Assembly: GCA_031414535.1 (NCBI GenBank)
Contig: JANNVQ010000014.1
Coordinates: forward strand, 160,001 to 224,000
Direction: 5' to 3'
Length of the DNA stretch: 64,000 bases
Origin: Gemmatimonas sp.
GTDB taxonomy: Bacteria; Gemmatimonadota; Gemmatimonadetes; Gemmatimonadales; Gemmatimonadaceae
Below, in pieces: positions 1 through 42,646 of this stretch. Under the pieces are notes generated by a model. The model was given only the letters and a program-made list of their open reading frames with translations, was not told the DNA's origin and ran no database searches. The stretch's first letter is position 1; each line of letters starts with the position of its first letter. The translations under genes were made by a program, and so were the position numbers.

Positions 1-4
1 GCTC

Positions 5-304
5 GTGGCGATAGTAGACACGCTCCTGGCGCGCCGCCTAGATGTGACGGTGCTCTTGTATCCGCGCATGCCAAGCACGCTCACTCCGACGGCACGGCAG
101 ACGACCCTGCCCCGCTTCCTCGCCCTCGCCCAAGCGGCCTTGCGCGGGCGTCCGGTGCGCGTGCTCGATCTCACCGATGTCGCGCCCTTAACAGACGCCG
201 ACTTTGGCGAGGATTTCGATCACCTTCTGCCGGCGGCGAACGCACGCTTTTCTGGCTGGGCTTTGGATGGTCCTTTTGCGTTCTTGCTTGAGGGCACGCG
301 ATGA
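5..304 (+). CDS. C-terminal fragment of SGNH-like protein (DltD/AlgJ-like MBOAT partner); runs off the window 5' edge
   Basis: DFDHL (DxxH) motif near the C-terminus; stop overlaps the MBOAT ATG (ATGA 301-304). Confidence 0.5.
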   Translation: MAIVDTLLARRLDVTVLLYPRMPSTLTPTARQTTLPRFLALAQAALRGRPVRVLDLTDVAPLTDADFGEDFDHLLPAANARFSGWALDGPFAFLLEGTR

Positions 305-1716
305 CTCCCACGAGTGTGGCATTCGCGCTGTTAGTGCTGACCGCCCTACTCCTGCACTGGACGGGTCCTCACACCTCCCGGTGGCAGAATAGCGTCCTGC
401 TGGGGTCGAGTGCCCTCTTCTACTGGTCCTGGTCGCCCGCTTGGCTGCCGGTGCTCGCGCTGTCCACGCTCGTGGATTTCTGGGCCGCACGGAAGATTGG
501 CGATGCCACCGGGGCCCCAACCCTGCGGCGATTCGCGCTCTGGTTAGGCCTTGGCAGCAACCTCGGCGTACTGCTGTGGTTCAAATACGCAGGCTTGCTG
601 CTCGACTCTGGTTCACTCGCGCTGCCGATCGGCCTCTCGTATTACACGCTCATTCGTGTTGGCTATCTGCTCGACCTGCGCTACGGACGAATCGTGGCTG
701 AGCGCTCGCTGCTGAACTTTGCGACGTTCATTTGGTTTTTCCCTCAGATGGTCGCGGGCCCCATCACTCGCGCCCGTGCGATGTTGCCGCAGTTCTCGTC
801 CGCCCGTTCGTGGCGCGACGTGAATTTCGGGAGTGCTGCCGCCGCGTTATTGCTCGGCTGGACGCTCAAGGCTTACGTGGCCGACTGGATTGGGCCCGCG
901 CTCGTGGAGCCCGTGTTTGCCTCAAGTGCAAGGTTTGGCGCGGCGGCCCACTGGCTCGCGTTAGTGAGTTACGCACTGCAGGTCTTTGGCGACTTCGCCG
1001 GCTACTCACTACTCGCCATCGGCGTGGCCGCGCTCTTTGGCATGTCGCTGCCCGTCAACTTTGACCGTCCCTTCCTCAGCCGGTCGATGCCGGAGTTCTG
1101 GCGGCGTTGGCATATCACGCTCAACACATGGCTCTTTGACTACGTGTTTGGGCCGCTGACCACGGGCGGCGGAGTGCTTCATGGACGCATCGCCTACAAC
1201 CTCGTGTTGATTTTCATGATCTCCGGGCTTTGGCACGGCGCGGAGTGGACCTTTGTGATCTGGGGACTGCTACACGGCCTGGCGCTCGCGGCGCACCACG
1301 GCTGGGATGTGTGGTACCGCGCGCAGTGCCGTCGCGACCGACGCTTCGTGACTGTTCGGAAGTCCGGCGCCTATGCATGGGCGGCTTGGGTGCTCACACA
1401 GGGCTGGTTCTTGGGCTCACTGGTTCTTTTCAAGAGTAGTGACCTCGCAAGCGCGGGTCGGTACCTCGGCGCACTCTTCGTCGCCGAGGGCACCGCATTC
1501 CCCTCGCTGGACTCCATGGCGCTGGCGAGCCTCCTCGGAGCCTTGCTGGTTGTCGCCTGGCATCATGCTGAGGGTTTGAGCTTAGGCGCGAGGCTGCGCG
1601 CGCGGTTTGACGCACTCCCTGCCCCGGTGATTGGCGCGGTCTTGGGGCTCGGGCTCGCGTGGTTGCTCATCTTCGCCCCCTTGGCCCGCACTAGCTTCAT
1701 TTATGCTCAGTTTTGA
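301..1716 (+). CDS. MBOAT family O-acyltransferase (AlgI/DltB-like)
   Basis: Multi-TM; LPIGLSYY, FFPQMVAGPI, DFAGYS, FWRRWHITL, ISGLWHGA (catalytic His); C-terminal FIYAQF. Confidence 0.92.
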   Translation: MTPTSVAFALLVLTALLLHWTGPHTSRWQNSVLLGSSALFYWSWSPAWLPVLALSTLVDFWAARKIGDATGAPTLRRFALWLGLGSNLGVLLWFKYAGLLLDSGSLALPIGLSYYTLIRVGYLLDLRYGRIVAERSLLNFATFIWFFPQMVAGPITRARAMLPQFSSARSWRDVNFGSAAAALLLGWTLKAYVADWIGPALVEPVFASSARFGAAAHWLALVSYALQVFGDFAGYSLLAIGVAALFGMSLPVNFDRPFLSRSMPEFWRRWHITLNTWLFDYVFGPLTTGGGVLHGRIAYNLVLIFMISGLWHGAEWTFVIWGLLHGLALAAHHGWDVWYRAQCRRDRRFVTVRKSGAYAWAAWVLTQGWFLGSLVLFKSSDLASAGRYLGALFVAEGTAFPSLDSMALASLLGALLVVAWHHAEGLSLGARLRARFDALPAPVIGAVLGLGLAWLLIFAPLARTSFIYAQF

Positions 1717-1718
1717 CT

Positions 1719-1982
1719 ATGCATAGCGACGCTGAACTCCGGCACGTGATCGTCGAGTGGCTGGACGACCAGTACCACTTTGGCGATGCCAGCTCGCTCA
1801 TCAAAAGTGACGAGCAGTCCTTCTTGGATACGGGAGTGCTGACCAGTCTTGGGTTCGTGCAGTTGGTGCTGTTTCTCGAAGGCAAGTTGCACATCGTCAT
1901 CGAACGCGGCGCACTGACCCGCGAGAACTTCGACGGCATGGGCAAGATTCTCGCCTTTGTGCGAGCCTGCCGGCTGCGCTGA
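1719..1982 (+). CDS. Acyl carrier protein
   Basis: 87 aa acidic protein, FLDTGVLTSLGFVQLVLFLE; ATG at 1719; stop overlaps next ATG. Confidence 0.8.
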   Translation: MHSDAELRHVIVEWLDDQYHFGDASSLIKSDEQSFLDTGVLTSLGFVQLVLFLEGKLHIVIERGALTRENFDGMGKILAFVRACRLR

Positions 1983-3946
1983 TGGATTCAGACGTTCTGT
2001 GGAATCCTGATCCTGCTGTAGCCTCGACATCGCAACTCGGGGCCTTCCAGCGCTTCTGCGAGCGTGAGACGGGCGAGGCGTTGACGAGTTGGCAGGACTT
2101 CCACGCGTTCTCGGTAAGGCGCTTCGAGGACTTCTGGAATCTATTTCTGCGCTGGAGCGGCGTCCGCACGAGCGGTGAACCGAGCCCCGTCTGCACGTCG
2201 CGCGATGTGGAGTCGGCAAGATTCTTCCCGAATGTTCGGCTGTCGTTCACGGAGTCTTTGTTGAGCGGGGCCGGCGTTGCGGATGAGGCGGCGGCCATCG
2301 TTGTCTGCAGCGAGGGGAGGCCGCCGCGCACGGTGACGCGTGGCGAACTCCGCTCGCGCGTGCGGCGCCTCGCTCGTGCATTGACGGCCCTCGGCGTCGG
2401 GCCAGGCAGCCGAGTAGCCGGACTCACGTCGCACGACGACGACACTATTGCGGTGGCGCTGGCCGCCGTTGGAATTGGCGCCACGTGGTCTGCATGTGGG
2501 CCAGAGCTCGCGGCAGATGCGGCGGTGGCGCGCTTCAGCGTCTTTGCACCCACGCATTTGGTTCTCAGCGTACAGACGCCGCGCGCAGATGCCGGGGATG
2601 AACCGTTGGCGCGCGCGCGCCATGTGGCCGCCCGTCTTCCCTCGCTGGTTCAGACCTTGCTGATTGGTCCCGATGCGGCCGCCGAGGCTATTGCCGAGGC
2701 TCTTTCGAACTGGCCGCAGGCTTGCGCGCCGCTCGCGCCACTGGAGCAGGCGCAGTCGGATGGTGCGTTTGAGTGGCCGCTTTTCGCGTTCGATCATCCG
2801 CTCTACGCGCTCTTTTCCTCGGGCACGACCGGCCCGCCAAAGGCCATCGTGCACGGTGCAGGCGGCACCTTGCTCGAGCATCTCAAGGAGCACAGGCTGC
2901 ACGGGGATCTTGGGTCGACTGACCGACTCTACTTCCAGACATCCTGTGGCTGGATGATGTGGCACTGGACGGTTTCGGCCCTCGCCACCGGCGCCTCAAT
3001 CGTTACCTACGATGGTTCGATTGCGGCCGATGGACCCGACACACTCTGGCGACTCGCCTCCGATACGCGCGTCACCGCGCTCGGGATTTCACCCAGCTTC
3101 GTCCAATACCAACGAAGCACGGCGGTGCATCCGCGCCGCCACGATCTCGCGGCGCTCCGGCTCGTGCTCTCCACGGGCTCAATTCTCTTCGACCGCGACT
3201 TCGACTGGCTGCATGAGCAGCTCGGTCCGCTACCCATTCACTCCATCTCTGGTGGCACGGACATCATCGGATGCTTCGTGCTCGGCAATCCGACTCTCCC
3301 TGTGTACCGAGGAGAAAGTCAATGCATCAGCTTGGCGATGGATGTACAGGCCGTTGCTGATACGGACGGCGGCCCAGACGAGTTGGTGTGCGCGAATCCG
3401 TTTCCGTCGCGGCCGGTTGCGTTCTTGAATGACTCGGACGGGACGCTGCGGCACGAGGCCTACTTCGCGCAGCGCCCGGGGTTGTGGACACACGGAGACT
3501 TTGTCGCTCTGCGTCCGCGCGGCTCAGCGCGCGTGCTCGGGCGCGCCGATGGCGTGATGAAAGTGCGTGGTATCCGCATCGGTCCAGCCGAACTCGTTGG
3601 CATCGTGGAGGCCTTGCCAGAGATTGAGGCCGCGATGGCCGTGGCCCAAGATGCGCCCGACGAACCCGGTGGTGCGCGCATCGTGCTTCTGGTGGTGCTC
3701 CGCGAGGGCGAGGTGCTGGACCGCGCGCTCACGTACCGCATCAAGCGGGCGGTGCGCGACGGCGCATCAGCCGATCACGTGCCATCACGCGTGGTAACGG
3801 TTCCCGCATTGCCCGTGACACTCAACGGCAAACGCTCAGAGCGCGCGGCACGTGACATCGTAAATGGTCGCACACCGGCGAATCTCGCCGCCCTGCGCGA
3901 CCCAGACCTCGCCGCGCGAATTAGCGAGGCGCTGCGACGGGAGTGA
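1982..3946 (+). CDS. Acetoacetate--CoA ligase family adenylating enzyme
   Basis: FSSGTTGPPKAIVHGAGGTLLEHLKEH, GWMMW, SISGGTDIIGCF, WTHGD, GIRIG, TLNGK motifs typical of acetoacetyl-CoA synthetases. Confidence 0.88.
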   Translation: MDSDVLWNPDPAVASTSQLGAFQRFCERETGEALTSWQDFHAFSVRRFEDFWNLFLRWSGVRTSGEPSPVCTSRDVESARFFPNVRLSFTESLLSGAGVADEAAAIVVCSEGRPPRTVTRGELRSRVRRLARALTALGVGPGSRVAGLTSHDDDTIAVALAAVGIGATWSACGPELAADAAVARFSVFAPTHLVLSVQTPRADAGDEPLARARHVAARLPSLVQTLLIGPDAAAEAIAEALSNWPQACAPLAPLEQAQSDGAFEWPLFAFDHPLYALFSSGTTGPPKAIVHGAGGTLLEHLKEHRLHGDLGSTDRLYFQTSCGWMMWHWTVSALATGASIVTYDGSIAADGPDTLWRLASDTRVTALGISPSFVQYQRSTAVHPRRHDLAALRLVLSTGSILFDRDFDWLHEQLGPLPIHSISGGTDIIGCFVLGNPTLPVYRGESQCISLAMDVQAVADTDGGPDELVCANPFPSRPVAFLNDSDGTLRHEAYFAQRPGLWTHGDFVALRPRGSARVLGRADGVMKVRGIRIGPAELVGIVEALPEIEAAMAVAQDAPDEPGGARIVLLVVLREGEVLDRALTYRIKRAVRDGASADHVPSRVVTVPALPVTLNGKRSERAARDIVNGRTPANLAALRDPDLAARISEALRRE

Positions 3947-5072
3947 TGTTGTGAAAGCGCTTCTGACGTGAGGTCTGCCACGGCGCATCGGAGCGGAGCA
4001 CTTCCAAGAACTGCTCCGCGCTGCGACCGTCGCCAAAGTGCTGCGAAGGAGCCACGCCAGACGGCAGGTTGGTGAGCACCTGCTTGATGGCCCCGGCTTC
4101 CGCTGGCACGTTCACGATTGACGGATATATAAACCGGTCAGACTGCCGCGTCCCCACGTTCACCGTGGGGACGCCATAGACCGGCGCCTCGCGAATCCCG
4201 GCGCTGGAGTTTCCGACAATCGCCTGGGCGTGCTTCAGCAGCGAGAGGAAGTACTCAAAGCGCATGGACGGCAGCATGCGGAAGCGGGGATTCCCCTCGA
4301 AGGTCTTGTAGTGCCGCAGGATGATATCGGCGCCAAAGTCGTTGTTGGGATACACCACCACGAAGTTCCGCCCCGACTCCACGGCGGCCCGCACGATCTC
4401 CGCGCTCTGGACCTCCAGCTGGTCGTGTTCCGTCGTGACCGGGTGGAACATCAGGATGCAGTGCTCGTCGAACGGAATCTCGTAGCGCTCGCGCACCACA
4501 GCCATCGTCGGCAGTGTGTCGCCGAGCATGACGTCAATGTCTGGCGAGCCAATCACGAAGATGGACGAGGGCTGCTCACCCAACTGCACGAGGCGATCGC
4601 GCGCTTCATCGTTGGCCACGAAGTGTAGGTGCGACAGCTTCGTCACCGCGTGCCTAATGAGATCATCAATGGTCCCCGAGATCTCGCCACCCTCGATGTG
4701 CGCCACGAGGATGTTATTCAGCGAGCCCACAATTGCGCCGGCAAGCGCCTCGATCCGATCGCCGTGCACGACAAGCAGATCGGGCGTGGCCTCGCGCACG
4801 TAGTGGCCGAGGCCCTGCACTGTCGTCGCAAGCACGAGATCCATCTGCGACGTCACTGCACCGTCCTGATTCACGAACGGATGGATGCGGTCGAACCCGG
4901 CATCGCGAATCTCCTTCACCGTGCGGCCGTACCGGGCGAGCATATGCATCCCAGTGGCGAAGATGTCGTACTCTAGCCCCGGTGTCGCCTTCACGCTGGC
5001 GATGAGCGGCTTGATTTTTCCAAAGTCGGCGCGCGTGCCGCTCAGGAAGAGAATGCGGCGGGTAGTGGTCAC
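3921..5072 (-). CDS. neuC: UDP-N-acetylglucosamine 2-epimerase (hydrolysing)
   Basis: GTRADFG, HGDRIE, HIEGGEISGTIDD, GNSSAGIRE, GDG motifs; coupled to neuB. Confidence 0.93.
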   Translation of the reverse strand: MTTTRRILFLSGTRADFGKIKPLIASVKATPGLEYDIFATGMHMLARYGRTVKEIRDAGFDRIHPFVNQDGAVTSQMDLVLATTVQGLGHYVREATPDLLVVHGDRIEALAGAIVGSLNNILVAHIEGGEISGTIDDLIRHAVTKLSHLHFVANDEARDRLVQLGEQPSSIFVIGSPDIDVMLGDTLPTMAVVRERYEIPFDEHCILMFHPVTTEHDQLEVQSAEIVRAAVESGRNFVVVYPNNDFGADIILRHYKTFEGNPRFRMLPSMRFEYFLSLLKHAQAIVGNSSAGIREAPVYGVPTVNVGTRQSDRFIYPSIVNVPAEAGAIKQVLTNLPSGVAPSQHFGDGRSAEQFLEVLRSDAPWQTSRQKRFHNITPVAAPR

Positions 5073-6168: not shown

Positions 6169-7197
6169 CTAGGCACCGATTCGCCGAAGGGCCTCGACCT
6201 CGGCGAGCCAGTCCGCCGGAACCTTGCCGAGGACGGCCGACACGCCATTCAGCAGGGCTCGGCGCGTGGCCTCCGGGGCGGCGCCCTCGGCGTCCCAAAT
6301 GATGGGCGCGCCGAAGACGCTGCGAAGCGCGAAGGCAGGCTCAGCGTCCTCGGCGTTCCGCGCAGGAAAGCCGCCGCAGAGCACTGCGCTCGTCGGACGT
6401 CCCGGACCTAGAGCGTCGAGGTAGGCCTCAATAGCGGGCCCGAGCGCCAATCCGCGTAGGTCGAGGCTCGCTTCCCGGCCCTCGGAGCCGGCGGGTGCTT
6501 CGCTCCAGGCGGCAAGGCGCGCCCGCTGGAGGTCCTGCGCGGAATCAATGTCCACGGACGCCGCTGCATCCATCGAGACGCCCAGAGTAGTGCCAGCCAC
6601 GAGGAACGCGCGATGGCGCTCGAGCTCGTCGAGGCGCGTGACGTACACGGCCCCGTTCGGCCACAAGGCCACGGGATTGTCCTGGCGCCGCGTGCTGATG
6701 GGTGCAGCGCCGAGCGCGAAGGAGAGCGGCTGGGAGTCGCCGCCGTACATCGCGAGAGCAATCGGGTGACTGGCTTCGATGACCGTGACTGCCGATGGCG
6801 CGCCTGCGGCCTGCGCCGCATTCCAGCACGCGCTAACATGTTCGGCGCGGCGCATGGGCGAGGTGGGCTGGAGCAGGATCAGCCACTGGGCCTCGCGTTC
6901 GAGCCGGTTCCAGGCGTGGAGCACGTTGTCCACGGTCTGCGTGGTGTCGGCGGCGAGTTCGCTGGGACGGAGGAATGGCAGCTCGCCTCCCCAGCGCCGT
7001 CCTTCCGCCCCAATCTGCTCACCGTCGGTGTCCACCAAGATCCGTGCGCGATCTTCAAGACCACTCGTACGCAGGAAGGCGCGTGCGGCGAGTACTGCGC
7101 GCCCCACCAGACTCACACCGGCGACGCTTGCGAGGTTCTTTCCCGGCAGGCCTTTGGAGTTGGCGCGGGCGGGAATCAGCAGCAGCAAGTCACGCAT
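6169..7197 (-). CDS. neuA: CMP-N-acetylneuraminate synthetase (acylneuraminate cytidylyltransferase) with C-terminal extension
   Basis: IPARANSKGLPGKN, RPSELA, LQPTSPMR, NGAVY, VDID; start reassigned to ATG 7197. Confidence 0.88.
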   Translation of the reverse strand: MRDLLLLIPARANSKGLPGKNLASVAGVSLVGRAVLAARAFLRTSGLEDRARILVDTDGEQIGAEGRRWGGELPFLRPSELAADTTQTVDNVLHAWNRLEREAQWLILLQPTSPMRRAEHVSACWNAAQAAGAPSAVTVIEASHPIALAMYGGDSQPLSFALGAAPISTRRQDNPVALWPNGAVYVTRLDELERHRAFLVAGTTLGVSMDAAASVDIDSAQDLQRARLAAWSEAPAGSEGREASLDLRGLALGPAIEAYLDALGPGRPTSAVLCGGFPARNAEDAEPAFALRSVFGAPIIWDAEGAAPEATRRALLNGVSAVLGKVPADWLAEVEALRRIGA

Positions 7198-17145: not shown

Positions 17146-17291
17146 GGCAGCTGATTGAGTGGAAGGGCAAAACCTGTGTTCTGGAGCAAGTGACTTAGCC
17201 GTTGCCCTAGTCAGCCTTGCGGCAGATGCGTCCAACCCCCAAATCTAGACCGGGTGACAGCGCGCTGACAGCATTGGAAGGAGCGTATGGA

Positions 17292-24337: not shown

Positions 24338-25723
24338 ATGTCTGAGAATACTGCAACCGCGCGGAGTTGGTGGGTGCTGCTCGCCGTCATCGCCCTCGCG
24401 GCGCTGCTGCGCTTCCCACTGCTCGACATTTTCCCGGGCTCGACGCCCGACGAAGGCGGCTGGCCCTTGGCCGTCCGCTCCTGGGTGGACGATGGCGACC
24501 GGACCTACGACCTCCACTCGGCGCCGGGCTACCATGTGCTGCTCGGCATCCCCTTCGCGATTGCGGGCTCCAGCTTCGAGGTGGCTCGTGCTGCATCGGT
24601 TACGGCTGGACTCATCGCCCTGTTGTTTTGGTTCTTCGCGGCATCGGCGGCGGCGGGCCGGACTGCGGCGCTGATTTCAGCGCTCTTGATTGCCACGAGC
24701 TTCGACGCCATCACGAATGACCGCCGAGCGCTGATTGAGCCTTACCAGATGCTTGCGATGTCGGCGCTCTTCTGGGCTTGGAGCACGCGCGAGCGCCGAC
24801 GAAGTATTTGGATTGCGCTCCTAACGGCGGTCCTATTGCTCACGAAAGCCATCGCCATCGTGTTCGTGGGTGCCTTTGGCGTCTCCACGTGGTTTGAGTC
24901 CACTCGCGATCCGCGCACTCGCCGCGCCGACCGCTTGGCGCTGCTCGCTGGCGTGGGGCTCGCCATCGCCGCTTACCTCGGCCTGTACCTAAGCGACCCG
25001 CCAACCTTCTTGCGGGGCTGGGGCGATAACGTCGGTCTCGCCACGTACGAGGCATCCGACGCCCTCTTCCGCGTGGGGCGCTTCGGCTTCGCGCCTGAAA
25101 CCGTGAAGACTTCGCTGCTCGCGATGTCGCACGCCGACCCCGTCGTCCTTGCCGCCGCGCTGATGGGGTTCGTGGCCGCACTCAAAAAGCGCGTGCTCTT
25201 ACCGCTCGCGTTTGGTATTCCGTTCACGCTGGGGTTCTTGCTGCTTCAGGTGTGGCAGGCGGGAAACTACTTCCACCCCATCACACCAATGGCCTGCATC
25301 CTGGCAGGCTGGTGGGTGTCCACGCAGCGGAGACAGTGGCAAGTGGCGCTGGTATTCTCGGCCGCACTGCTCTCGGGAGTCCGTATTGTTCGCGGCGCCT
25401 CCGCGGCCGACCCCGCCGAGCGCATAGCCACAGTGGAGCTCGCGACCCGCCTGCAGGGAAGCGACCATGTGCTGTCGGCCGCGTATCTCGCCATGCGCCT
25501 GCCCGGCGCGGTGACCTCGTACCCTGAGTTCCCGCCCCCGTACATGCCAGCGCTCGACACCCTTCGCGCACGCAGCATCACTTGGCTCCTCTACGATAAA
25601 CGCGAATGGGCCTACGCACACCGGCAGGTGCCGCAGGACTCCGTGCGTGCATGGCTCAATTCCTGTTGCGTGGCCGAGCCAGGCCTCGGCGGCGGCGTAT
25701 TTCTTGCGTACCGGGTGCGATGA
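24338..25723 (+). CDS. ArnT/PMT-like (GT-C) membrane glycosyltransferase
   Basis: Multi-TM; DEG after first TM, H.APGY, LLTK. Confidence 0.68.
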   Translation: MSENTATARSWWVLLAVIALAALLRFPLLDIFPGSTPDEGGWPLAVRSWVDDGDRTYDLHSAPGYHVLLGIPFAIAGSSFEVARAASVTAGLIALLFWFFAASAAAGRTAALISALLIATSFDAITNDRRALIEPYQMLAMSALFWAWSTRERRRSIWIALLTAVLLLTKAIAIVFVGAFGVSTWFESTRDPRTRRADRLALLAGVGLAIAAYLGLYLSDPPTFLRGWGDNVGLATYEASDALFRVGRFGFAPETVKTSLLAMSHADPVVLAAALMGFVAALKKRVLLPLAFGIPFTLGFLLLQVWQAGNYFHPITPMACILAGWWVSTQRRQWQVALVFSAALLSGVRIVRGASAADPAERIATVELATRLQGSDHVLSAAYLAMRLPGAVTSYPEFPPPYMPALDTLRARSITWLLYDKREWAYAHRQVPQDSVRAWLNSCCVAEPGLGGGVFLAYRVR

Positions 25724-29247: not shown

Positions 29248-30087
29248 TCAGCGCTTGCGAGCCACGAGCAGCACGAGGTCGCCAAGTCGGTACGGCAGCT
29301 CCACACCACGCGCCGCAGCAGGGGCAGGCAGCCCGAGAACTTCCAGACCGCGGGCCAGCGAAATCCAACGAGTCACTGAACCATACGACACCCAAGACCA
29401 CTCAGTCTCTGGCAGAAGTCTCCGCAGGGATCGGCGGTTGAACCATGTCGTCACGCGCTCTGGCGACCATTGGTGCCAGCGCGCACCACTCATTCGTGCG
29501 ACTAGTGCATCGCGGTCCCACGTTTCGATGCAGAGCAAGCCGCCAGGGGCGAGCATGCGCCGTGCCCGCGCAACTGCGCGCGCGGGCTCCGCACAATGCT
29601 CCAGTACGTTCAGCATCGTCACGGCATCTCGCGACCCTGCTTCCCCCGCGTCACCGTCCACGGCGTCAAAGGCCTCCGTGCGCACCTTGAGCCCAGCCAG
29701 TCGCGCGTGGTCAGTTGCCCACGCACTCACGTCTGCGCCGGCCGCCTGCCAGCCACGGCTCTCGGCCTCGCGGAGCAGAAATCCGGCTGCACACCCAACG
29801 TCAAAGAGCCGGCGCCCTTCGTTGACCCTCTCGAGCCGCCGCAAATATCGGGCGGCCTGACGACGTAGCGTCGGCCCCTCAGCGAGATAGTCGGCGTAGC
29901 CGTCCGACGCATCGCCACGGAAGTACTCAGGGGCAAATCGCGTGGCCGCCTGCGCCGAATCAAACGGGCGATGATATACCGCGTCGCAGAGCCCACAACG
30001 CCAGAGTCGGTGCACCCCAATATCCACTGCGCGGGCCTGCTCACTCGCGCAGATAAGACAGCGAGGCGCTAAAAGCTCATCAGGCAC
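29248..30087 (-). CDS. Class I SAM-dependent methyltransferase with N-terminal CxxC-CxxC
   Basis: CLIC..CGLC, DVGCAAG, VLEH, LAPGG; GTG start 30087. Confidence 0.82.
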   Translation of the reverse strand: MPDELLAPRCLICASEQARAVDIGVHRLWRCGLCDAVYHRPFDSAQAATRFAPEYFRGDASDGYADYLAEGPTLRRQAARYLRRLERVNEGRRLFDVGCAAGFLLREAESRGWQAAGADVSAWATDHARLAGLKVRTEAFDAVDGDAGEAGSRDAVTMLNVLEHCAEPARAVARARRMLAPGGLLCIETWDRDALVARMSGARWHQWSPERVTTWFNRRSLRRLLPETEWSWVSYGSVTRWISLARGLEVLGLPAPAAARGVELPYRLGDLVLLVARKR

Positions 30088-31750
30088 CAGTCGCGAGGCT
30101 GAGGAGCCGTGAAGCGAACGGAAGCTGAACAGGCTCGATGGGCAGCGATGCATCCACCAGTTCGCAGCCAGTCACGCAGGTCGCTGCGAGGCGCCGCACT
30201 TCCTCGTAGCTCTGCGGCCCAACACCACCATAGCGCGCACGCAGGAATGCGTCTGTGTCACGCACCTCACGCGACACGGCGCGCTCCACATCGCGGAAGG
30301 CGACCATGACATTCTGTACAACCACATGCTCAACCTTTTTCCGGCCGTAACCGATACCCACTACCGCGCCTGCAGGTAACGCAAGACCACGCCAAATGGT
30401 GCAGAAATCGAATAGCCGCGGCGAAGGCAGAGCTTGCAAAGCGTGTGACGCTAGCGGCCGATACAGCTCGTGCGCGACTGCCGCGAACAAGGCGTCGGCA
30501 CCGCTAAGCGCGCGCTCAAGATCCTGCGTGAAGCAGTCCTCAAGACCGAGGCGGCGAATATTGACGTCGTCCGGCTTCACGAAGGGATCGTGCACGATGA
30601 CGTCCGCGCCAGCCTCGCGCGCGAGCTTCGCAAAGATCAGCGCCGCAGAGTTGCGCGTGTCCTCCGACTCGGCGCGGTACGCCGCACCGAGCACTGCAAT
30701 GCGCTTCCCGCGCGGATCACCGAGCGCGGCGTTTACTCTCGCCCAAGCCAAGGTCGGCGACACGTCATTCACCTCGCGGCTCGCGAGAATCAAACTCTTT
30801 GCTGCAGCGGGGTCCCGAGCTTCAAGCCGCCGCCACCAGAGGAGCACTCCGTCCTTCGGCAAACAGTGGCCGCCCACGCCCACGGTGGGTACCAGCACGC
30901 CGCCGTGCGGCACGGCCGTTGGGTCTTGGCTCGCGTTGTCCTCCTGCGCGAGTCCCGCGTTCACGCGGTCGCGAAGATCAAAGAAGTCCAGGTTCTCAGC
31001 GTCACACCAACGTGCCAACTCCGCCGAGAAGGCGATGCGAACATCGCGATAGGCGTTCTCCAAGGTCTTCACGATTTCGGCCGTGAGGCTGTCCGTGACG
31101 TGAAGCGTACCGGCCGTGACGATGCCCGAGTACAGCGTCGCGACCTCAGCTGCCGTGGCGGGATCGAGCGCTCCGACGAGCTTGTCGCTCGCAGCGACTC
31201 GCGCCACCAGCCGGCCCGGCATCACACGGTTTGGTGAGTTCGCAAGGCGCACATGCTGACCTTCGATAAGGCCCTGCGCCGCGAATCGCTCGCGCACCAC
31301 CGTGGCCATAGACGAGGGCGCCAACGTGGACTCAATGATGACGAGCGGCGCGCTAAGACCTGGGCGCCGCGCGCGAAACGCTATGGCGAGCGCATCGAGC
31401 GCCGCAAAGAGCGGCACGTAGTCCGGCGCGATGCCATCCTTGTCCGTCTGCACGCAGACGAGAACGATTTCAGCGTTCGCGAGATCGTCCACATCATGCG
31501 TGGCGCCGAGGTGGCCGCTCGCGACCGTGCGTCGCACGATTGCATCGAGGCTTGGCTCCGCCCCGCCAATCGGAGATTCACCCCGATTGATGGCGCCCAC
31601 CTTCCAGCCTGAGGTCGCGGAGTTGCGCTGAACCACGAGCACGCGCCGGCCCGCTGAGCCGCGCTTCGCCTCGACATCCGCCAAGAGTGCTGCCATGGGC
31701 ATCCCGACGATACCCGGGCCGATTACGCCGATCAGTGATGTCGTCATCAA
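30080..31750 (-). CDS. Nucleotide-sugar dehydrogenase (UDP-glucose/GDP-mannose dehydrogenase family, WecC/WbpA-like)
   Basis: IGPGIVG, IEST, RVMPG, AEIVKTLENAYRDV, GVGGHCLPKD, DTRNS. Confidence 0.88.
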   Translation of the reverse strand: MMTTSLIGVIGPGIVGMPMAALLADVEAKRGSAGRRVLVVQRNSATSGWKVGAINRGESPIGGAEPSLDAIVRRTVASGHLGATHDVDDLANAEIVLVCVQTDKDGIAPDYVPLFAALDALAIAFRARRPGLSAPLVIIESTLAPSSMATVVRERFAAQGLIEGQHVRLANSPNRVMPGRLVARVAASDKLVGALDPATAAEVATLYSGIVTAGTLHVTDSLTAEIVKTLENAYRDVRIAFSAELARWCDAENLDFFDLRDRVNAGLAQEDNASQDPTAVPHGGVLVPTVGVGGHCLPKDGVLLWWRRLEARDPAAAKSLILASREVNDVSPTLAWARVNAALGDPRGKRIAVLGAAYRAESEDTRNSAALIFAKLAREAGADVIVHDPFVKPDDVNIRRLGLEDCFTQDLERALSGADALFAAVAHELYRPLASHALQALPSPRLFDFCTIWRGLALPAGAVVGIGYGRKKVEHVVVQNVMVAFRDVERAVSREVRDTDAFLRARYGGVGPQSYEEVRRLAATCVTGCELVDASLPIEPVQLPFASRLLSLATGA

Positions 31751-33621
31751 TCAATAAAGGTCCGAAACCAGATTTCGAGATTGAGCAATCCCCACGATTG
31801 CCGTGAAAAATCACGCTCATGCCGTAGCAAACCTTCCACGCCTGCGGGGTCGAAAATTCCGCGCTCGCGTGCGCGCGACGACATGAGGGTGTCATGGATG
31901 AAGTCACGCGAGGGCCCGCGTGTCCACAGGTGCAGCGGCACCGGGAAGCCCATCTTGTCCTTGCGGGCAAGCACGGTCTCCGGCACGACACCCTGCGCCG
32001 CCTTCTTCAACAAGTATTTGAGTTCACCGCCACGGAATTTCAGTCGTGGCAACAGCGTGGCCATGAACTCCACAAGTCGGTGATCAAGCAAGGGAACCCG
32101 CGATTCTAATCCAGAGGCCATACTCGCACGATCTTCAACTTGCAGCAGCGCTGGCAAGCCGGCCGTGAGGTCGAAGTGCGTCATCTTGTTGAAGTACGAC
32201 TGCGTATCGGGACGATTAAAGCGTTCGGAGAAGCGCTCGAAGGTGCGCTCCGGATCATGAGAGGCGCGCCAATCTGAACCCAGCACGCTAACGGCGCCGC
32301 CGAGGCGGTCGAGCAAGCGGAAGTACCGACGATCCATCGGCTCAAACACCCCGCTGCGCCAGAACTGCTGGAGCATCGGCGCGTAGCGCTGCAAGGTCGG
32401 GAGGTTCGGGAGAATCGAACGCAGGGATACGATGTGCTCGGCTTCCTCGTTGGTCTCGTAGATGGCGCCCTTGAGCGCTTGCTCGAGATAGGCCACGAGG
32501 TAGCGCGTATAGCCGCCAAAGACCTCATCTCCACCTTGGCCACCGAGCGTAACCTTCACGTGGCGCGCCGCATACGCCGAGACGGCAAACTGCGGAATCA
32601 CGCCAGGACCAGCGGCCGGCTCATCGAGATGCCACACCAAGCGCGGTAGCAGCGTCGAGATGTCGCCCACGTCGGGCACGATCTCGTGCAAAGCCAATCC
32701 ACGCGATTCGGCTACCGCGCGCGCGTACGGCGTCTCGTCAAAGTCCGGTCCCTCACGGAACACGCCAGTGAAGGCATGCATTCCCGCTGCGAGATTCGGT
32801 GCGGCCAGGCAGGCGATCATTGAAGAGTCAAGTCCACCGCTGAGATGACTTCCCACGGGCACGTCGCTGCGCAACTGAAGCCGCACGGCGTCCTCAAGCA
32901 ATGCACGGAGGCGTTCGACGGCGTCCGCTTCCGTGATCGAGGAGTCCACGTTGTAGCTGGGTGACCAATAGGTCGCGCTTTGCACGCGGCCGTCAGCGAG
33001 CCCAACAAGTTGATACGTGCCGGGCTCTAGCTTGTAGATACCGCGGAACAGGGTGCGATCGCCGAGCACGAACTGATACGTCAGATAGTCTTCGAGCGCC
33101 TCAAGGTCCACCGCGCGTTCGAGGTCGGGAAGCTCCAACAGTGCCTTGATCTCCGAGGCCCACGCGAAGCGCCCGCTAACGCGCGTCCAGTAAAGCGGCT
33201 TGATGCCCAGCCGATCGCGTGCCGCGAAGATGTGCCCGCGCGCGGAATCCACCAAGACGAAAGCGAACATGCCGTTGAGCCGCGACAGCGCATCCGTGCC
33301 CCATTCGCGATACGCCTTGAGGATCACCTCCGTGTCGGAAGCGGTGCGGAACTGGTGCCCGCGACCGCGCAGTTCATCGCGCAGTTCACGATAGTTGTAG
33401 ATTTCGCCGTTGTAGGTGATGGCGAGATCACCGTCGTGCATCGGTTGTGCGCCGGTGGCGACATCGATGATGGCTAAGCGCGCGTGGAAGAGCGCCACCG
33501 CACCGGCCGTGGACACCGCAAGTCCGTCGGGACCGCGATGCTGAATGCGCTCACCTAGCCGCCGCGCGAGTTCTGGTTCCGCCGCACGCCCAGGCGCAAA
33601 GACCGCAACGATGCCGCACAT
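31747..33621 (-). CDS. asnB: Asparagine synthase (glutamine-hydrolysing) family amidotransferase, second copy
   Basis: MCGI, HRGPDG, NGEIYN, LSGGLDSS, GQGGDEVFGGY, RKDKMGF. Confidence 0.92.
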   Translation of the reverse strand: MCGIVAVFAPGRAAEPELARRLGERIQHRGPDGLAVSTAGAVALFHARLAIIDVATGAQPMHDGDLAITYNGEIYNYRELRDELRGRGHQFRTASDTEVILKAYREWGTDALSRLNGMFAFVLVDSARGHIFAARDRLGIKPLYWTRVSGRFAWASEIKALLELPDLERAVDLEALEDYLTYQFVLGDRTLFRGIYKLEPGTYQLVGLADGRVQSATYWSPSYNVDSSITEADAVERLRALLEDAVRLQLRSDVPVGSHLSGGLDSSMIACLAAPNLAAGMHAFTGVFREGPDFDETPYARAVAESRGLALHEIVPDVGDISTLLPRLVWHLDEPAAGPGVIPQFAVSAYAARHVKVTLGGQGGDEVFGGYTRYLVAYLEQALKGAIYETNEEAEHIVSLRSILPNLPTLQRYAPMLQQFWRSGVFEPMDRRYFRLLDRLGGAVSVLGSDWRASHDPERTFERFSERFNRPDTQSYFNKMTHFDLTAGLPALLQVEDRASMASGLESRVPLLDHRLVEFMATLLPRLKFRGGELKYLLKKAAQGVVPETVLARKDKMGFPVPLHLWTRGPSRDFIHDTLMSSRARERGIFDPAGVEGLLRHERDFSRQSWGLLNLEIWFRTFID

Positions 33622-33623
33622 CG

Positions 33624-34592
33624 CTAGCGTGCGCCGATGACGCGCGTCTTCAACGCCGTCGCGTCGAGTCGCGACGCAAAAGCGCCGAGCGTTTGCACAT
33701 CGAATCCGTCGCGCAGGCGCACCAAGGTCTCGCGCACGAACGCCCGCTTCTGCGCGCCAGGCAAGTCCATTCCGGGAAAGAAGCGCAGGCCTGCGACGTC
33801 GTCGCCGCCGAGGAAGTCCAGTGGATGCAACAAGAGGCTAGGCGGCGTTCCCGTGGCGCGGCAGAGGCTGAGCGCGGTGCGGAAGTACCCGCGCGCGAGC
33901 GCCGGTGAGCGGCGGGCGAGGTAGATGAGATAGCTCGGATGAAACGGTGCGCGAGTCACAGGCATGGTCGTCACCGGAATCTCCAGCAATGCGGCACCGG
34001 ACCGCAACTGCAAGCGATGCGGAGCGAGTGGGCGGAATCCGTCGGCGAAGCGCCCAAATAGCAATCGGCGCGTGTTGCGTGCCTCAGCACTCAGCTTTGC
34101 CGCGCGAAAATAGTACCAGCGAGCGAGTGGGCCGATGAAGGTCGGTAGCGTGGATGCGTCATAGCGGTAGCCGCGAGCCGCGAGCAGCTCGAGCAGGGCC
34201 GGACTCCAACTGTAGCCCGGTCCCCGGAAACCCACCGGCCGGCAACCCGTGGCCGCGATAATGGCCGCCTCGCTACGATCCAACTCCGCACTGAGTTGCT
34301 CCACGCTGTACTCGTGCAACCACGACTCATGCTCGTGCGAGTGATTGCCAATCTCGTGCCCGTCTTCCGCAAGACCACGCAGCAGAGCAGCGTTCTCGGG
34401 CCGCGCGGCATCGGCACCAACCACGAAGACCGTAAGCCGCAGGTCGAGATCACGCAGCGCGGCGCGCACGATAGGGATGAATATCGCGAGATAGCTCGGA
34501 CGAGATTCCCATCGCGGATCGCCTTGGACCTTGAGGTAGGTCCACTCGTCGTCGAGGTCGAGCGACAGCGTGGCCAGCGGGCGGGCGGGCAT
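33624..34592 (-). CDS. Polysaccharide deacetylase family protein
   Basis: SLDLDD, HEIGNHSHEH, GFRGPG, YDAS, LHPLDF. Confidence 0.85.
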   Translation of the reverse strand: MPARPLATLSLDLDDEWTYLKVQGDPRWESRPSYLAIFIPIVRAALRDLDLRLTVFVVGADAARPENAALLRGLAEDGHEIGNHSHEHESWLHEYSVEQLSAELDRSEAAIIAATGCRPVGFRGPGYSWSPALLELLAARGYRYDASTLPTFIGPLARWYYFRAAKLSAEARNTRRLLFGRFADGFRPLAPHRLQLRSGAALLEIPVTTMPVTRAPFHPSYLIYLARRSPALARGYFRTALSLCRATGTPPSLLLHPLDFLGGDDVAGLRFFPGMDLPGAQKRAFVRETLVRLRDGFDVQTLGAFASRLDATALKTRVIGAR

Positions 34593-35920
34593 CAGGCTGA
34601 GGTGGACGCGAGCGCTGCTTCCAATGCAGGCAGGGAGCGCTCGGCCAAGCCAACCGTCTCATTGGCGTTGAGCGTGCCGTTCACAATCTGCGCGGAGTTC
34701 ACGATGTAGAGCCCGGGAATTGACGTCGTCATCGCAGGACAGGCGTCGCGACTGTAGTTGAGCGTGGGCACGGCCTGCACTTCTCGCGCCCTCGACACCG
34801 ACGCATGCTTGATGGCCTCGGGGGGCAGCTTCGGGAAGAGCCGACCAACTCCGCGTTGGAATTCGTCGAGCACCTCAGCGTCGGACTTCGACCACCAGGA
34901 ATCAGACGCCGTACAGTAGCGTGGAACATAGGCCAGCGTGAGGCCACCAAACTCACTGGGCGGCACCAACGCCGTCATCTCCACCACGGTGGTGAATGGA
35001 AATCCCGGTTCTGTGATATTGGTGACGTAGTAGCCCGAGAGCGGGCGATCGAGCAGCAGGCTCGCGCAGATCACACCTTGGTACACCACGCGCCCGAGGC
35101 GCGCGTGCTCGCCTGCTTGCAGGCTCGGGCAGAGCCGCGTCACCACACCACAGGGCACCGTGAGGACCACGGAGTCAAACCGTCGCACGACACCGCCCAC
35201 CTGCAACTCGACCCCCCGCCCATTCTCGCGAACCGCTTCGACCCGCTCCACGCGCTGGCCAACTTCGATCACGCCGCTCGCAGATTCGAACGCGCTTCGC
35301 AGCGCACGAAGCGTCGTCGCGTACCCGCCTGCCAAATAACCGAAGCGCTCACGCTTAAGCCCCGAGCGCCGCGCCGCGTACATCCTCGCGATGATGGCCC
35401 AAATAAATGAAGCGCTTGCGAGCCGCCAATTCTCACCAAGCTTGGCCTCGAGCAGTGGGCGCCAGATTCGTTGGAAGGTTCGTTCACCCGACCAGCGACG
35501 CAGCCAGACATCTACCGGTTCCCGCTCAAGCGGCGCTGCATCGCGGATATTGGCGGCGCGCAGAATGGTCGCCGCGAGCCTTGCTTTGTCCACGAGCCCG
35601 AGCGGTGGGAAACGCAGGAACTCCACCGCGCTCGACATCGAGTGAAATCGACCGTCCGTGTAGAAGCCAGTGCGCGTCGTGCCCCACCGGAGTTCACCGC
35701 GCAGTCCAAGCTCGGCAAGAAGCCCGAGCAGTGCGCGGTCTGACTCCAGTGTCACGTGATAGAACCGGTCCCACGTGAAGCCGCCGAGCTCCTGCGGCGC
35801 CGCCAGTCCACCAAGCTCGGCATTTCCTTCGAGCACCCGCACGCGATGACCACGCTGCGCGAGTCGCAATCCAAGTGTGAGGCCAAGTATGCCTCCGCCG
35901 ACTACGGCGACCTCAGCCAT
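34592..35920 (-). CDS. FAD-dependent oxidoreductase (protoporphyrinogen oxidase-like fold)
   Basis: VVGGGILG, E...LGGLA, DRFYH. Confidence 0.78.
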   Translation of the reverse strand: MAEVAVVGGGILGLTLGLRLAQRGHRVRVLEGNAELGGLAAPQELGGFTWDRFYHVTLESDRALLGLLAELGLRGELRWGTTRTGFYTDGRFHSMSSAVEFLRFPPLGLVDKARLAATILRAANIRDAAPLEREPVDVWLRRWSGERTFQRIWRPLLEAKLGENWRLASASFIWAIIARMYAARRSGLKRERFGYLAGGYATTLRALRSAFESASGVIEVGQRVERVEAVRENGRGVELQVGGVVRRFDSVVLTVPCGVVTRLCPSLQAGEHARLGRVVYQGVICASLLLDRPLSGYYVTNITEPGFPFTTVVEMTALVPPSEFGGLTLAYVPRYCTASDSWWSKSDAEVLDEFQRGVGRLFPKLPPEAIKHASVSRAREVQAVPTLNYSRDACPAMTTSIPGLYIVNSAQIVNGTLNANETVGLAERSLPALEAALASTSA

Positions 35921-37644
35921 CAGTTGCGCACGCGTGGGGCAAGACCCACCGAGCCCCAGACCCGCCCCAGCAACAAGCGCGCAATCATCACAAGATGACC
36001 GCCGATAATGCGAAGAATGCGGAGCTTCGAGCGACCAAGCATTCGCACTTCAAGCGTCGTCGGGAACTCAACAATGCGGTGCCCCGCCAAGTCGAGACGG
36101 CATAGCATCTCCGTCACACCCAAGAATCCCGTACGGTCGAGAGTCATCCCAGCCATTGCCTCGCGGCGGTATACACGGAAGCAACTGGTGTAGGTCGCGA
36201 GTTGGTTGCGCAGCACCAAGCGATACAGACGCGAAAGATTCCTGGAGAGCGCGAGCCGCCAAGTGGGGACGTTCCGCACCGCGCCACGCGGATGGTAGGG
36301 CGATGCCGTGACCAGCGCGACACCCGACGTCAGCAGCGGAATCATTTCGGCGAGGCGATGCGGATCGTAAGTACAGTCGCAGTCAATCGAGCAGATGACG
36401 TCCGTCCCCGCCTCCGCGATGCCCCGCAGAATGGCACCCGCTGGACCCTCATTCGCTCGCAGCCGTAGAATCCTGCAGTTGGCGTGCGTTCCAAAGAGCC
36501 TTTCGAGAGACGCCGCCGTGCCGTCCGTGCTACAATCATCCACGAAGATGAAGCGCAGATCGTAGGACCGACTGAGTTCAGCCTCCACGGAGCGCAGCGT
36601 GTTTGCCAGGTAGGGGAGAATCAACTCCTCGTTATAACAAGGCACCACCACCGTAACGGCCTGCTGCGTCGTAGGCTCTCGCGAACTCTCGCTCACAGCA
36701 GGAGCGGCCAACGCCGCCGCTAGAGAAGCATCGCTCGCACGCGGCGAGACGAGTTGTGCCGTTTCGCCGCGATCTAGCCCGAGATAATCACTGATCGAGG
36801 TGAATGGAACCTCGCGAAGGAACCACCCCAGCCGCTCGGGCATCATTTCGAGATTGCGATAATGACGCAAGCGCTGCGCTGCCCGCGCCGCGCTGATGCG
36901 CGGTTGGTCGGCATCCAACTCCCACGTGTGGAAGTAGAGCACTAGGGGAGCACTTTCACCCGCTAGCCACTGCCGTGCGCCGAGACGCACGAGCCACTGC
37001 GGAAGTTGCCTGAGGTAGTTGCCACCGAGCGGCACGTTCCGCCCCAACACACGCATGCTCGCGACCGGAAACTCCCAAATGCTCCCGTCGCCCACCCGAT
37101 GCCGATGCGAGACGCCGCGCCAATGATGCTCGGAGTTCTGACCAAGTCGCGGGGCGAAACTCGAGTCATAGCGGTAGCCCTGTGCCGTCAGGACGTCGAG
37201 CGCCCAAAGGTCGGCCTCTTGAAGCCACTCACCTGCCACCCGATACCCATGCACGCGTCGGCCGGAGGCTCGCTCAATGGCATCGCGTGCGCGCAGGAGA
37301 TCGTCCGCAAACTCCCCGGGCGTCATCCCGCCGATGTTGCGGTGGTAGTACCCCTTACTCGCCACCTCGTGGCCGCGGTCCGCTACCTCACGCACCAGCT
37401 CGGGCACCTGCTCCGCCACCCAGCCGAGCACGAAGAAGGTGGCGCGCACTTTGTGTTCGTCGAGCAGGTCAAGCGTCCGGCGAGTGCCATGCTCCACCCG
37501 CGACTCAAAGCGATACCACTCACCCCGCTGCACCAGTTGGTTGAAGGCCCCAACCTGGAAGTAGTCCTCCATCGCAACTGTGAGCAGGTGCTGCCCCGAG
37601 GTTATGCTCTGGGGAGCGCCTTGTGCATTCGGTGATTGAGGCAA
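35920..37644 (-). CDS. Fusion: XrtA-type polysaccharide deacetylase-like domain + GT2 glycosyltransferase
   Basis: N-terminal EDYF, ATFFVLGWVAE, YDSS, YFHTWELD; C-terminal VVVPCYNEE, VDDCSTDGT, IDCD. Confidence 0.85.
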   Translation of the reverse strand: MPQSPNAQGAPQSITSGQHLLTVAMEDYFQVGAFNQLVQRGEWYRFESRVEHGTRRTLDLLDEHKVRATFFVLGWVAEQVPELVREVADRGHEVASKGYYHRNIGGMTPGEFADDLLRARDAIERASGRRVHGYRVAGEWLQEADLWALDVLTAQGYRYDSSFAPRLGQNSEHHWRGVSHRHRVGDGSIWEFPVASMRVLGRNVPLGGNYLRQLPQWLVRLGARQWLAGESAPLVLYFHTWELDADQPRISAARAAQRLRHYRNLEMMPERLGWFLREVPFTSISDYLGLDRGETAQLVSPRASDASLAAALAAPAVSESSREPTTQQAVTVVVPCYNEELILPYLANTLRSVEAELSRSYDLRFIFVDDCSTDGTAASLERLFGTHANCRILRLRANEGPAGAILRGIAEAGTDVICSIDCDCTYDPHRLAEMIPLLTSGVALVTASPYHPRGAVRNVPTWRLALSRNLSRLYRLVLRNQLATYTSCFRVYRREAMAGMTLDRTGFLGVTEMLCRLDLAGHRIVEFPTTLEVRMLGRSKLRILRIIGGHLVMIARLLLGRVWGSVGLAPRVRN

Positions 37645-37861: not shown

Positions 37862-37995
37862 GTAATGCGTTGTCCTGTTTAAACTTACACTGCCTTCCGA
37901 TTCGGTCCAAAACGCTTCGGATTGCGGCCCTACTCCTGCTGTAGTTCACTGCGTTAGTGGACCGCCGTCAAGATTTCGACTTCCCGAGTTGCGTA

Positions 37996-42633: not shown

Positions 42634-42646
42634 GCGGATCTATTGA

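Follow-up and report, generated by a model that had tools for sequence, protein, structure and literature searches.

A predicted carrier-fed MBOAT-SGNH acyl relay with an acetoacetate-CoA-ligase-like loader in a Gemmatimonas glycan locus

The DNA analyzed here (referred to as the window) is a 64,000-nucleotide stretch of a Gemmatimonas sp. genome (contig JANNVQ010000014.1, positions 160,001 to 224,000; G000:C14:160001-224000). It begins with four tightly coupled genes, all on the + strand, encoding (i) an SGNH-fold protein, (ii) a membrane-bound O-acyltransferase (MBOAT), (iii) an acyl carrier protein (ACP) and (iv) an adenylating enzyme of the acetoacetate-CoA ligase (AACS) family. We propose, with a probability of roughly 0.7, that this cassette encodes a carrier-fed MBOAT-SGNH relay which loads acetoacetate or 3-hydroxybutyrate, its substrate, exported group and acceptor all being predicted. 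That the acyl group passes through the carrier is very probable. The central idea of the initial annotation, in which the ligase is the DltA equivalent that loads the ACP, gains support at the level of sequence from two findings: the conserved linkage of the genes and the position of the ligase in a separate clade.

Organization and distribution of the cassette

The window opens with the 3′ part of the SGNH-fold transferase gene (1..304, +; predicted DltD/PatB role), followed by the genes for the MBOAT acyltransferase (301..1716, +; 471 aa), the DltC/PCP-like carrier protein (1719..1982, +; 87 aa) and the AACS-like adenylating enzyme (1982..3946, +; 654 aa), the predicted carrier loader (DltA role). 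The close coupling noted in the initial annotation is present: the SGNH stop and MBOAT start codons overlap (ATGA, 301-304), the MBOAT stop (1716) and the ACP start (ATG, 1719) are 2 nt apart, and the ACP stop and ligase start overlap again (TGATG, 1980-1984). Promoter and terminator scans gave results no better than chance level.

The distribution of the cassette was examined using an alignment of the SGNH protein, which led to 59 loci in genomes and 51 in metagenomes. Collapsing these at 90% identity left 92 loci, of which the 54 with at least 4 kb of downstream sequence were kept as “long” loci. This analysis revealed that the MBOAT, carrier and ligase genes are all present in 47 of the 54 long non-redundant SGNH-anchored loci, in the same order in 44 of them; of the remainder, two lack a full ligase gene and five contain the SGNH gene alone. 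A carrier gene is present in 49/54. For two lone SGNH copies (loci L239 and L241), the other cassette genes were located elsewhere in the same genome. By comparison, a carrier or MBOAT match within 1.5 kb was found at 0/112 canonical AACS loci. The linkage is far beyond chance (47/54 vs 0/112, two counts that rest on different flank lengths), and the expectation that it should be conserved in other genomes was borne out.

Titled records carrying the cassette belong to Gemmatimonadota, Myxococcota, Gamma-, Beta- and Alphaproteobacteria, Entotheonella, Spirochaetaceae, Planctomycetota and Acidobacteriota. The closest titled SGNH relatives (54-57% identity) are mostly from Gemmatimonadota, and within the host phylum the distribution is patchy, with a strong SGNH match in only 3/301 genomes. 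Povalibacter uvarum DSM 26723 (L062), which is available in culture, also carries the whole cassette. A copy at L241:9489-13525 contains ligase and MBOAT genes apparently broken by a stop codon and frameshifts, which may reflect an assembly error or decay.

The linkage was also examined in the reverse direction, by searching 251 genomes from a single other phylum with a profile of the ligase. Thirteen matches scored above 850 bits (the next one 760), and they included seven new ligases of the clade described below. The ACP gene lies directly upstream in six of the seven; for the seventh, SGNH-MBOAT-ACP genes were found on another contig of the same genome. Among the six carrier-linked ligases, three have MBOAT and SGNH genes at another place in the genome, with an intact shuttle, and one lies at a contig end in a genome that gave only a distant MBOAT. 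A second set of 251 genomes, from a further phylum, returned only the already known case.

Phylogenetic position of the ligase

The solved structure closest to the ligase is 4WD1 (S. lividans AACS). The protein scored 597 bits with the NF002937 model, below its cut-off of 639, and 91 bits with the amino-acid adenylation domain model (cut-off 317), so that it does not qualify as a DltA-type enzyme. The genome contains a second AACS gene, located beside hppD, a position that fits tyrosine catabolism. Its product scored 861 bits with TIGR01217, compared to 576 bits for the cassette ligase, and the two proteins share 41% identity.

A FastTree phylogeny was computed for 269 sequences, with six distant homologs as the root. 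All 51 cassette ligases group in it with 34 carrier-fused enzymes on a long stem (clade support 0.995). Also in this clade are seven context-free representatives and a single ligase with its partners encoded elsewhere in the genome; the carrier profile matched none of the 91 representatives that fall outside the clade. A PP-binding domain is present in 34 of the 40 nearest representatives (a local carrier profile was applied to all 150 cluster representatives, and Pfam to 45 of them). The fused enzymes have the architectures A-T-TE, A-T-hexapeptide, hexapeptide-T-A and A-T-GNAT. In an IQ-TREE analysis (44 sequences, fast run, SH-aLRT), the grouping of this clade with a single stand-alone sister, L243, was supported at 99.2/1.

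As judged from these trees, the ligase is a member of an old carrier-associated clade and not the catabolic enzyme; its separation from catabolic AACS, on which the initial annotation had staked its idea, is seen with both programs. The suggestion that a normally catabolic ligase had been recruited is better expressed as membership of this old clade; a recent co-option of the genome's own catabolic gene does not fit, at 41% identity. A recent duplication of that gene was likewise rejected, given this identity and the placement of the two proteins in different clades.

AACS-like fusions (A-T-TE, A-T-hexapeptide, A-T-GNAT and A-T-TE-GDSL; P0073-P0112 and L314-L316) are widespread, and on Burkholderia and Cupriavidus plasmids such proteins are labelled acetoacetate-CoA ligase. 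A distant AACS-like subfamily (L227-L232; about 400 bits with TIGR01217, 630-700 aa) occurs in several genomes and was used as outgroup only.

Predicted substrate-binding residues of the ligase

The acyl-pocket motifs WMMW, STGS and SISGGTD are kept in the cassette ligase as in canonical AACS, unlike in Acs, and the catalytic Lys617 of AACS is also retained. Changes specific to the clade flank the pocket, namely Pro to Ile/Val after STGS and Ala to Gln/His before SISGG.

The region predicted to bind CoA presents a different picture. The loop motif G[YF]x[YF]xG[KR] (DGYxYxGK), identified in 54/79 canonical enzymes, was found in none of the 51 cassette ligases and none of the 34 fused enzymes. 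This loop aligns with the arginine loop of the Acs encoded by the same genome, which is the CoA-phosphate-binding loop. A second position is basic in 74/78 canonical enzymes and is occupied by Arg in only 9/51 cassette enzymes. The net charge of the C-terminal subdomain is +5.1 in cassette ligases and +1.0 in canonical AACS; a basic subdomain of this kind would be expected for docking of a free acidic carrier. Taken together, the alignments indicate that an acetoacetate-type acyl pocket has been kept and the CoA-binding region remodelled. In a study of Salmonella Acs, Arg191 and Arg584 are described as contacting the CoA phosphates (PMC10455477).

The carrier and the predicted export proteins

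The predicted phosphopantetheine attachment site of the carrier is Ser43, within LTSLG (codon 1845-1847), and this serine is invariant in 42/42 aligned carriers. The preceding residue varies (Asp 48, Thr 9, Ser 5, Asn 3 and Ala 2; n = 67). The carrier profile matches DltC and peptidyl carrier structures (E 1e-8 to 1e-7). DltC models match 42/42 carriers; the window protein gave only weak DltC/ACP matches, all below cut-off, including that of the DltC equivalog. A phosphopantetheinyl transferase (PPTase) gene directly adjoins the cassette in 5/92 loci, and the window genome encodes an Sfp-type PPTase 9.4 kb upstream. Structure prediction of the ligase-carrier complex gave a score of 0.23 against a mark of 0.32 and was used neither for nor against the relay.

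Beyond the glycan locus lie the genes of a hybrid NRPS/PKS pair (37957-48400, +), comprising an NRPS-like protein of 1558 aa (formyltransferase-adenylation-luciferase-like-carrier) and a PKS of 1917 aa (KS, AT, KR, DH and carrier domains). The upstream Sfp-type PPTase could serve this pair as well as the cassette carrier.

The MBOAT protein matches PF03062 (113 bits, cut-off 27) and scores below the cut-off of the DltB model TIGR04091 (166 vs 375 bits). It aligns with the DltB structure across residues 103-353, a stretch that contains the histidine of the WHG motif (His312 in GLWHG). Its C-terminus is FIYAQF, and the codons of this predicted acyl shuttle (Tyr468) occupy 1696..1713 (+). The motif F[ILV]YxxF forms the C-terminus in 61 of 62 distinct complete MBOAT homologs, and YxxF in all 62.

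According to a recent mechanistic study, PatA acylates the tyrosine of such a motif (FIYANF, FIYSSF), PatB then takes the acyl group, DltX carries the same C-terminal motif as PatA, and other MBOAT/SGNH pathways work without a carrier protein and with acyl-CoA as donor (PMC12148441). Since the cassette MBOAT itself ends in FIYAQF, no DltX would be needed, and the abutting genes leave no space for an extra ORF of that kind. Judged by this fused hexapeptide, a feature missed in the initial annotation, the export half appears to be PatA/AlgI-like, not DltB/DltX-like.

Locus L219 (2545-8663) encodes a clade ligase with its cognate carrier beside a more distant MBOAT (39% identity, ending in FLYRQF), and a different GDSL protein sits between the MBOAT and the ligase. 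This arrangement suggests that loader and carrier can be combined, as a unit, with other MBOAT-SGNH pairs.

The first gene encodes a protein of 353 aa and starts 757 bases before the window (G000:C14:159243). It had been taken initially for a 99-aa ORF (5-304), an interpretation ruled out by the full reading frame reaching upstream; the recognition of an SGNH-like DxxH protein was correct. The protein has an N-terminal membrane anchor (a single hydrophobic segment, residues 25-43). The motifs GSSH (Ser74) and DxxH (DFDH, Asp324/His327) are invariant in 66/66 aligned homologs; the catalytic Ser74 is encoded outside the window, and Asp324 and His327 inside it. No match to the protein was found in Pfam (E 10) or NCBIfam, PF13472 was detected in 13/68 homologs, and the profile of the family gave nothing significant among the sequences of solved structures. 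The predicted structure (pLDDT 93.7) has an SGNH hydrolase fold (best Z 14.1). DltD gave the longest alignment of 50 rows (Z 11.8 over 229-245 residues) and ranks below generic GDSL esterases (Z 14). The model and the conserved motifs point to a separate SGNH transferase with a Ser-Asp-His triad, as in PatA/PatB-type systems.

Proposed relay and candidate acceptors

In the proposed relay, (i) a PPTase would prime Ser43 of the carrier, (ii) the ligase would adenylate acetoacetate (or 3-hydroxybutyrate) with ATP and transfer it to the carrier arm, not to CoA, (iii) His312 of the MBOAT would move the acyl group across the inner membrane to the protein's own Tyr468, and (iv) Ser74 of the SGNH protein would take it over and esterify a periplasmic or surface glycan. 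The last two steps follow the established PatA/Dlt mechanism. The acceptor is likely to be a surface glycan, in this genome most likely the polysaccharide made by the Wzx/Wzy locus around the cassette.

The cassette is embedded in a large glycan locus. A polyprenyl-phosphate sugar transferase gene ends 15 bases before the first gene; Wzc-, Wza-, GT2- and WecB-like genes (recognized by eye) also lie upstream, and wzx, wzy-like, GT4, AsnB and additional SGNH genes lie downstream of the cassette. Two of the additional GDSL/SGNH proteins (11570-12676, − and 15991-17235, −) have no adjoining MBOAT gene and might also accept acyl groups from the cassette shuttle.

There is a nearly even chance that the relay operates as proposed with at least one variation: the acceptor may be a lipid-linked sugar, lipopolysaccharide (LPS) or a GT-C-built glycoprotein, and/or the acyl group may be reduced on the carrier to 3-hydroxybutyryl before export. 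Regarding the acceptor, genes for PMT_2-type GT-C proteins occur in 18/92 loci and LPG_synthase_TM flippase-like genes in at least six. A PMT_2-like gene lies directly 3′ of the ligase gene in L020, L023, L055, L047, L096 and L103. Its homolog in the window encodes a GT-C/PMT_2-like membrane protein (24338..25723, +) 20 kb away; no NCBIfam or Pfam match was found for this protein itself, and the L103 homolog carries PMT_2. It is a candidate partner in building the acceptor.

A second candidate, as the source of the acceptor glycan, is a six-gene deacetylase-GT2 module (29248..37644, −) encoding a deacetylase-GT2 fusion, an FAD oxidoreductase (PRK07233), a deacetylase, an AsnB-type amidotransferase, a nucleotide-sugar dehydrogenase and a methyltransferase. 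At least one of five module genes is present in 18/92 non-redundant loci (16/54 long ones), which adds ArnC/ArnD-like GT2 and deacetylase functions to the arguments for a lipid-linked acceptor. Against any single alternative, many cassettes have no glycan gene nearby and no one acceptor is indicated. The module is conserved beside the cassette in several phyla and resembles a lipid-carrier sugar pathway.

As for reduction on the carrier, acetoacetyl-ACP is a normal substrate of FabG, so that a housekeeping ketoreductase could act, and one locus (L098) has a MaoC-SDR gene. A conserved in-cluster reductase or 3-hydroxybutyrate dehydrogenase was sought and rejected: none recurred among clusters present in at least three loci, nor among the 180 cluster representatives of 309 flanking genes (about 155 scanned, most others covered via cluster mates). 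Moreover, the carrier resembles DltC and peptidyl carriers, not a fatty-acid ACP.

Probable identity of the loaded acid

Genes for making acetoacetate (HMG-CoA lyase, ScoAB, or HMG-CoA synthase/thiolase) were identified beside the cassette in 6/92 loci, spanning three lineages which are 38-52% identical in the SGNH protein. In L047 and L103, HMG-CoA lyase, scoA and scoB genes directly precede the SGNH gene, and scoAB is also present in L096. In L083, genes for HMG-CoA synthase, thiolase and a DUF35 protein precede the cassette and scoAB follows it; HMG-CoA synthase and thiolase genes are likewise found in L124, and an HMG-CoA lyase gene precedes the cassette in L100. Acetoacetate is the common product of HMG-CoA lyase and the ScoAB CoA-transferase. 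Together with the unchanged pocket, these neighbors strengthen the earlier suggestion that acetoacetate or a close C4 acid is the load. In L083 (7384-9976) and L124 (3024-5633), the synthase, thiolase and DUF35 genes form an archaeal-type triad within a bacterial glycan locus.

The loaded acid is probably acetoacetate; 3-hydroxybutyrate, on which bacterial AACS may also act, and some other acid are each considerably less probable, to a similar degree. For AcsA2, only the acetoacetate reaction is confirmed (PMC5596199).

Some findings temper the case for acetoacetate. Supply genes are a minority (4/54 long loci), none was found beside the cassette in the window, and scoAB had no match in this genome, in which the lyase is encoded elsewhere. 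HMG-CoA lyase genes also occur beside 4/112 canonical AACS loci. In the pocket itself the window ligase has His328, a position occupied by Asn in 77/78 canonical and 45/51 cassette enzymes and changed to His in 5/51, the window enzyme included.

It is unlikely that the same relay serves a different small acid (lactate, glycolate, 3-hydroxypropionate or 3-hydroxy-3-methylglutarate) or one that depends on the lineage. Such a reading could draw on the clade-specific changes beside the pocket motifs, the Asn to His exchange among them, on the HMG-CoA synthase and thiolase genes of L083 and L124, which have no lyase gene in the locus, and on the lack of a supply gene at most loci. However, the core pocket residues equal those of canonical AACS, the HMG-CoA lyase and ScoAB neighbors share acetoacetate as their one product, and no enzyme making a different acid recurred in the survey of neighboring genes.

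Should the loaded acetoacetyl group be exported unreduced, an outcome we put forward tentatively and regard as somewhat doubtful, the resulting surface glycans would bear reactive β-keto esters, and some lineages would couple a small ketogenesis pathway (thiolase, HMG-CoA synthase/lyase, ScoAB) to the cassette. We know of no acetoacetyl β-keto ester substituent on any bacterial polysaccharide.

Carrier loader or CoA ligase

Still less likely than a different acid is that the ligase makes acetoacetyl-CoA, with the MBOAT using the CoA thioester like PatA or the carrier being transacylated later. Several observations weigh in this direction or against carrier loading. The enzyme passes TIGR01217, an equivalog model for AACS (cut-off 520.9), and retains Arg592 at the second position mentioned above. 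At the Arg191 position, where Acs has its main CoA-binding Arg, even canonical AACS have Tyr, which makes the CoA argument an indirect one, and the correspondence between the Salmonella Acs numbering and the ligase positions is one that we in part presume. The fused enzymes, a set picked by likeness to the query, show no charge shift (+1.1). Furthermore, 29 of 42 cassette-linked genomes, which are incomplete, contain at most one AACS-family match at E 1e-100; in many of them the cassette ligase may be the only AACS copy and could also serve CoA. Acyl-CoA is the donor of the fused-shuttle MBOATs characterized to date (PMC12148441).

The sister sequence L243 belongs with these observations. IQ-TREE fails to separate it from the clade (35.8), it shares several clade residues, and its locus (L243:8341-11789) consists of scoA-scoB followed by the stand-alone ligase gene, with no carrier gene in 20 kb. 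Some clade features may thus predate the carrier linkage. The L243 genome carries a full cassette elsewhere.

Against a role as CoA ligase, the carrier is kept in nearly all long loci with its serine invariant, no recurring transacylase was seen, carrier fusions occur only within the clade and the DGYxYxGK loop is lost. In addition, a CoA ligase encoded together with ScoAB would be superfluous or lead to a futile cycle, whereas a carrier loader fed by ScoAB would not. These points favor the carrier-fed relay.

The neighboring neu genes

The ligase gene is adjoined by neuC, encoding a hydrolysing UDP-GlcNAc 2-epimerase (3921..5072, −; TIGR03568, 392 bits), which lies outside the cassette and closes a convergent neuA-neuB-neuC block. 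The adjacency reported in the initial annotation stands; lying on the opposite strand with a tail-to-tail overlap of 26 bases, neuC does not share a transcription unit with the ligase gene. The link to nonulosonic acids implied in the initial annotation is not supported, given the opposite strands and the finding of neuA/neuB at 0/54 long loci, and nonulosonic acid was rejected as a conserved target. The least likely reading, that the acyl group is destined for the nonulosonic acid of this block, can point to the position of neuC within one large glycan locus, where a nonulosonate in the polymer could be the acceptor, and to the known 3-hydroxybutyryl groups on nonulosonic acids, but the only two neuC-like matches at other loci are 23-26% identical, the closest relatives have the PMT_2-like gene after the ligase instead, and N-acylation of nonulosonates takes place in the cytoplasm, with CoA thioesters as donors and no need of an MBOAT. 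Because of that PMT_2-like gene in the closest relatives, the intervening neu genes seem particular to this lineage. At its C-terminus, the NeuA-like cytidylyltransferase (6169-7287, −) is extended by about 110 residues that gave no family match.

Implications and comparison with known systems

If the proposed relay is correct, clade enzymes annotated as catabolic are probably carrier loaders, and their current labels would mislead metabolic reconstructions. Export of acetoacetyl would give an unusual, chemically reactive glycan substituent, and its β-keto esters could bind metals or condense with amines produced by the co-occurring deacetylases; cross-linking of the matrix in this way is speculation. 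Export of 3-hydroxybutyryl would provide an extracytoplasmic route for its addition. With a soluble ligase, a soluble carrier and P. uvarum in culture, the idea is directly testable.

No paper on a system combining an MBOAT, a carrier and an AACS was found in the open-licence literature, nor any experimental study of the AACS-like fusion proteins in the literature searched. A 2025 mechanistic study treats the carrier protein as peculiar to Dlt (PMC12148441).

With AACS (EC 6.2.1.16; TIGR01217; 4WD1; S. meliloti AcsA2), the cassette ligase shares the fold, adenylation motifs, Lys617 and pocket motifs; it differs in its separate clade, lost loop, basic C-terminal subdomain and adjacent carrier gene. 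The AACS-like fusions (e.g. BYI23_D001940 of Burkholderia sp. YI23) belong to the same ligase clade and contain a carrier domain, which in P0095 is related to the cassette ACP. In these proteins, however, the carrier is fused and release is assigned to a thioesterase-like, hexapeptide or GNAT domain, not to an MBOAT.

The cassette shares with Dlt an adenylating enzyme, a dedicated DltC-like carrier, an MBOAT with the WHG histidine, an anchored SGNH protein with GSS and DxxH motifs, and the tyrosine hexapeptide. It differs in that the loader is of the AACS family, not DltA, the shuttle is fused to the MBOAT, without DltX, no component in the window reaches a Dlt family cut-off, the hosts are Gram-negative and the gene order is SGNH-MBOAT-ACP-ligase. 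The fused FIYxxF MBOAT, the separate SGNH transferase and the location in glycan loci are shared with PatA/PatB and AlgI/AlgJ, whereas the conserved carrier with its own loader, and an acyl group that is probably C4, not acetyl, are not. As far as can be predicted from the encoded proteins, the cassette works like Dlt yet is not a member of it, and uses a PatA-type shuttle without the carrier-free design. It combines a front end of the Dlt type with a fused shuttle of the PatA type and occurs in several Gram-negative phyla.

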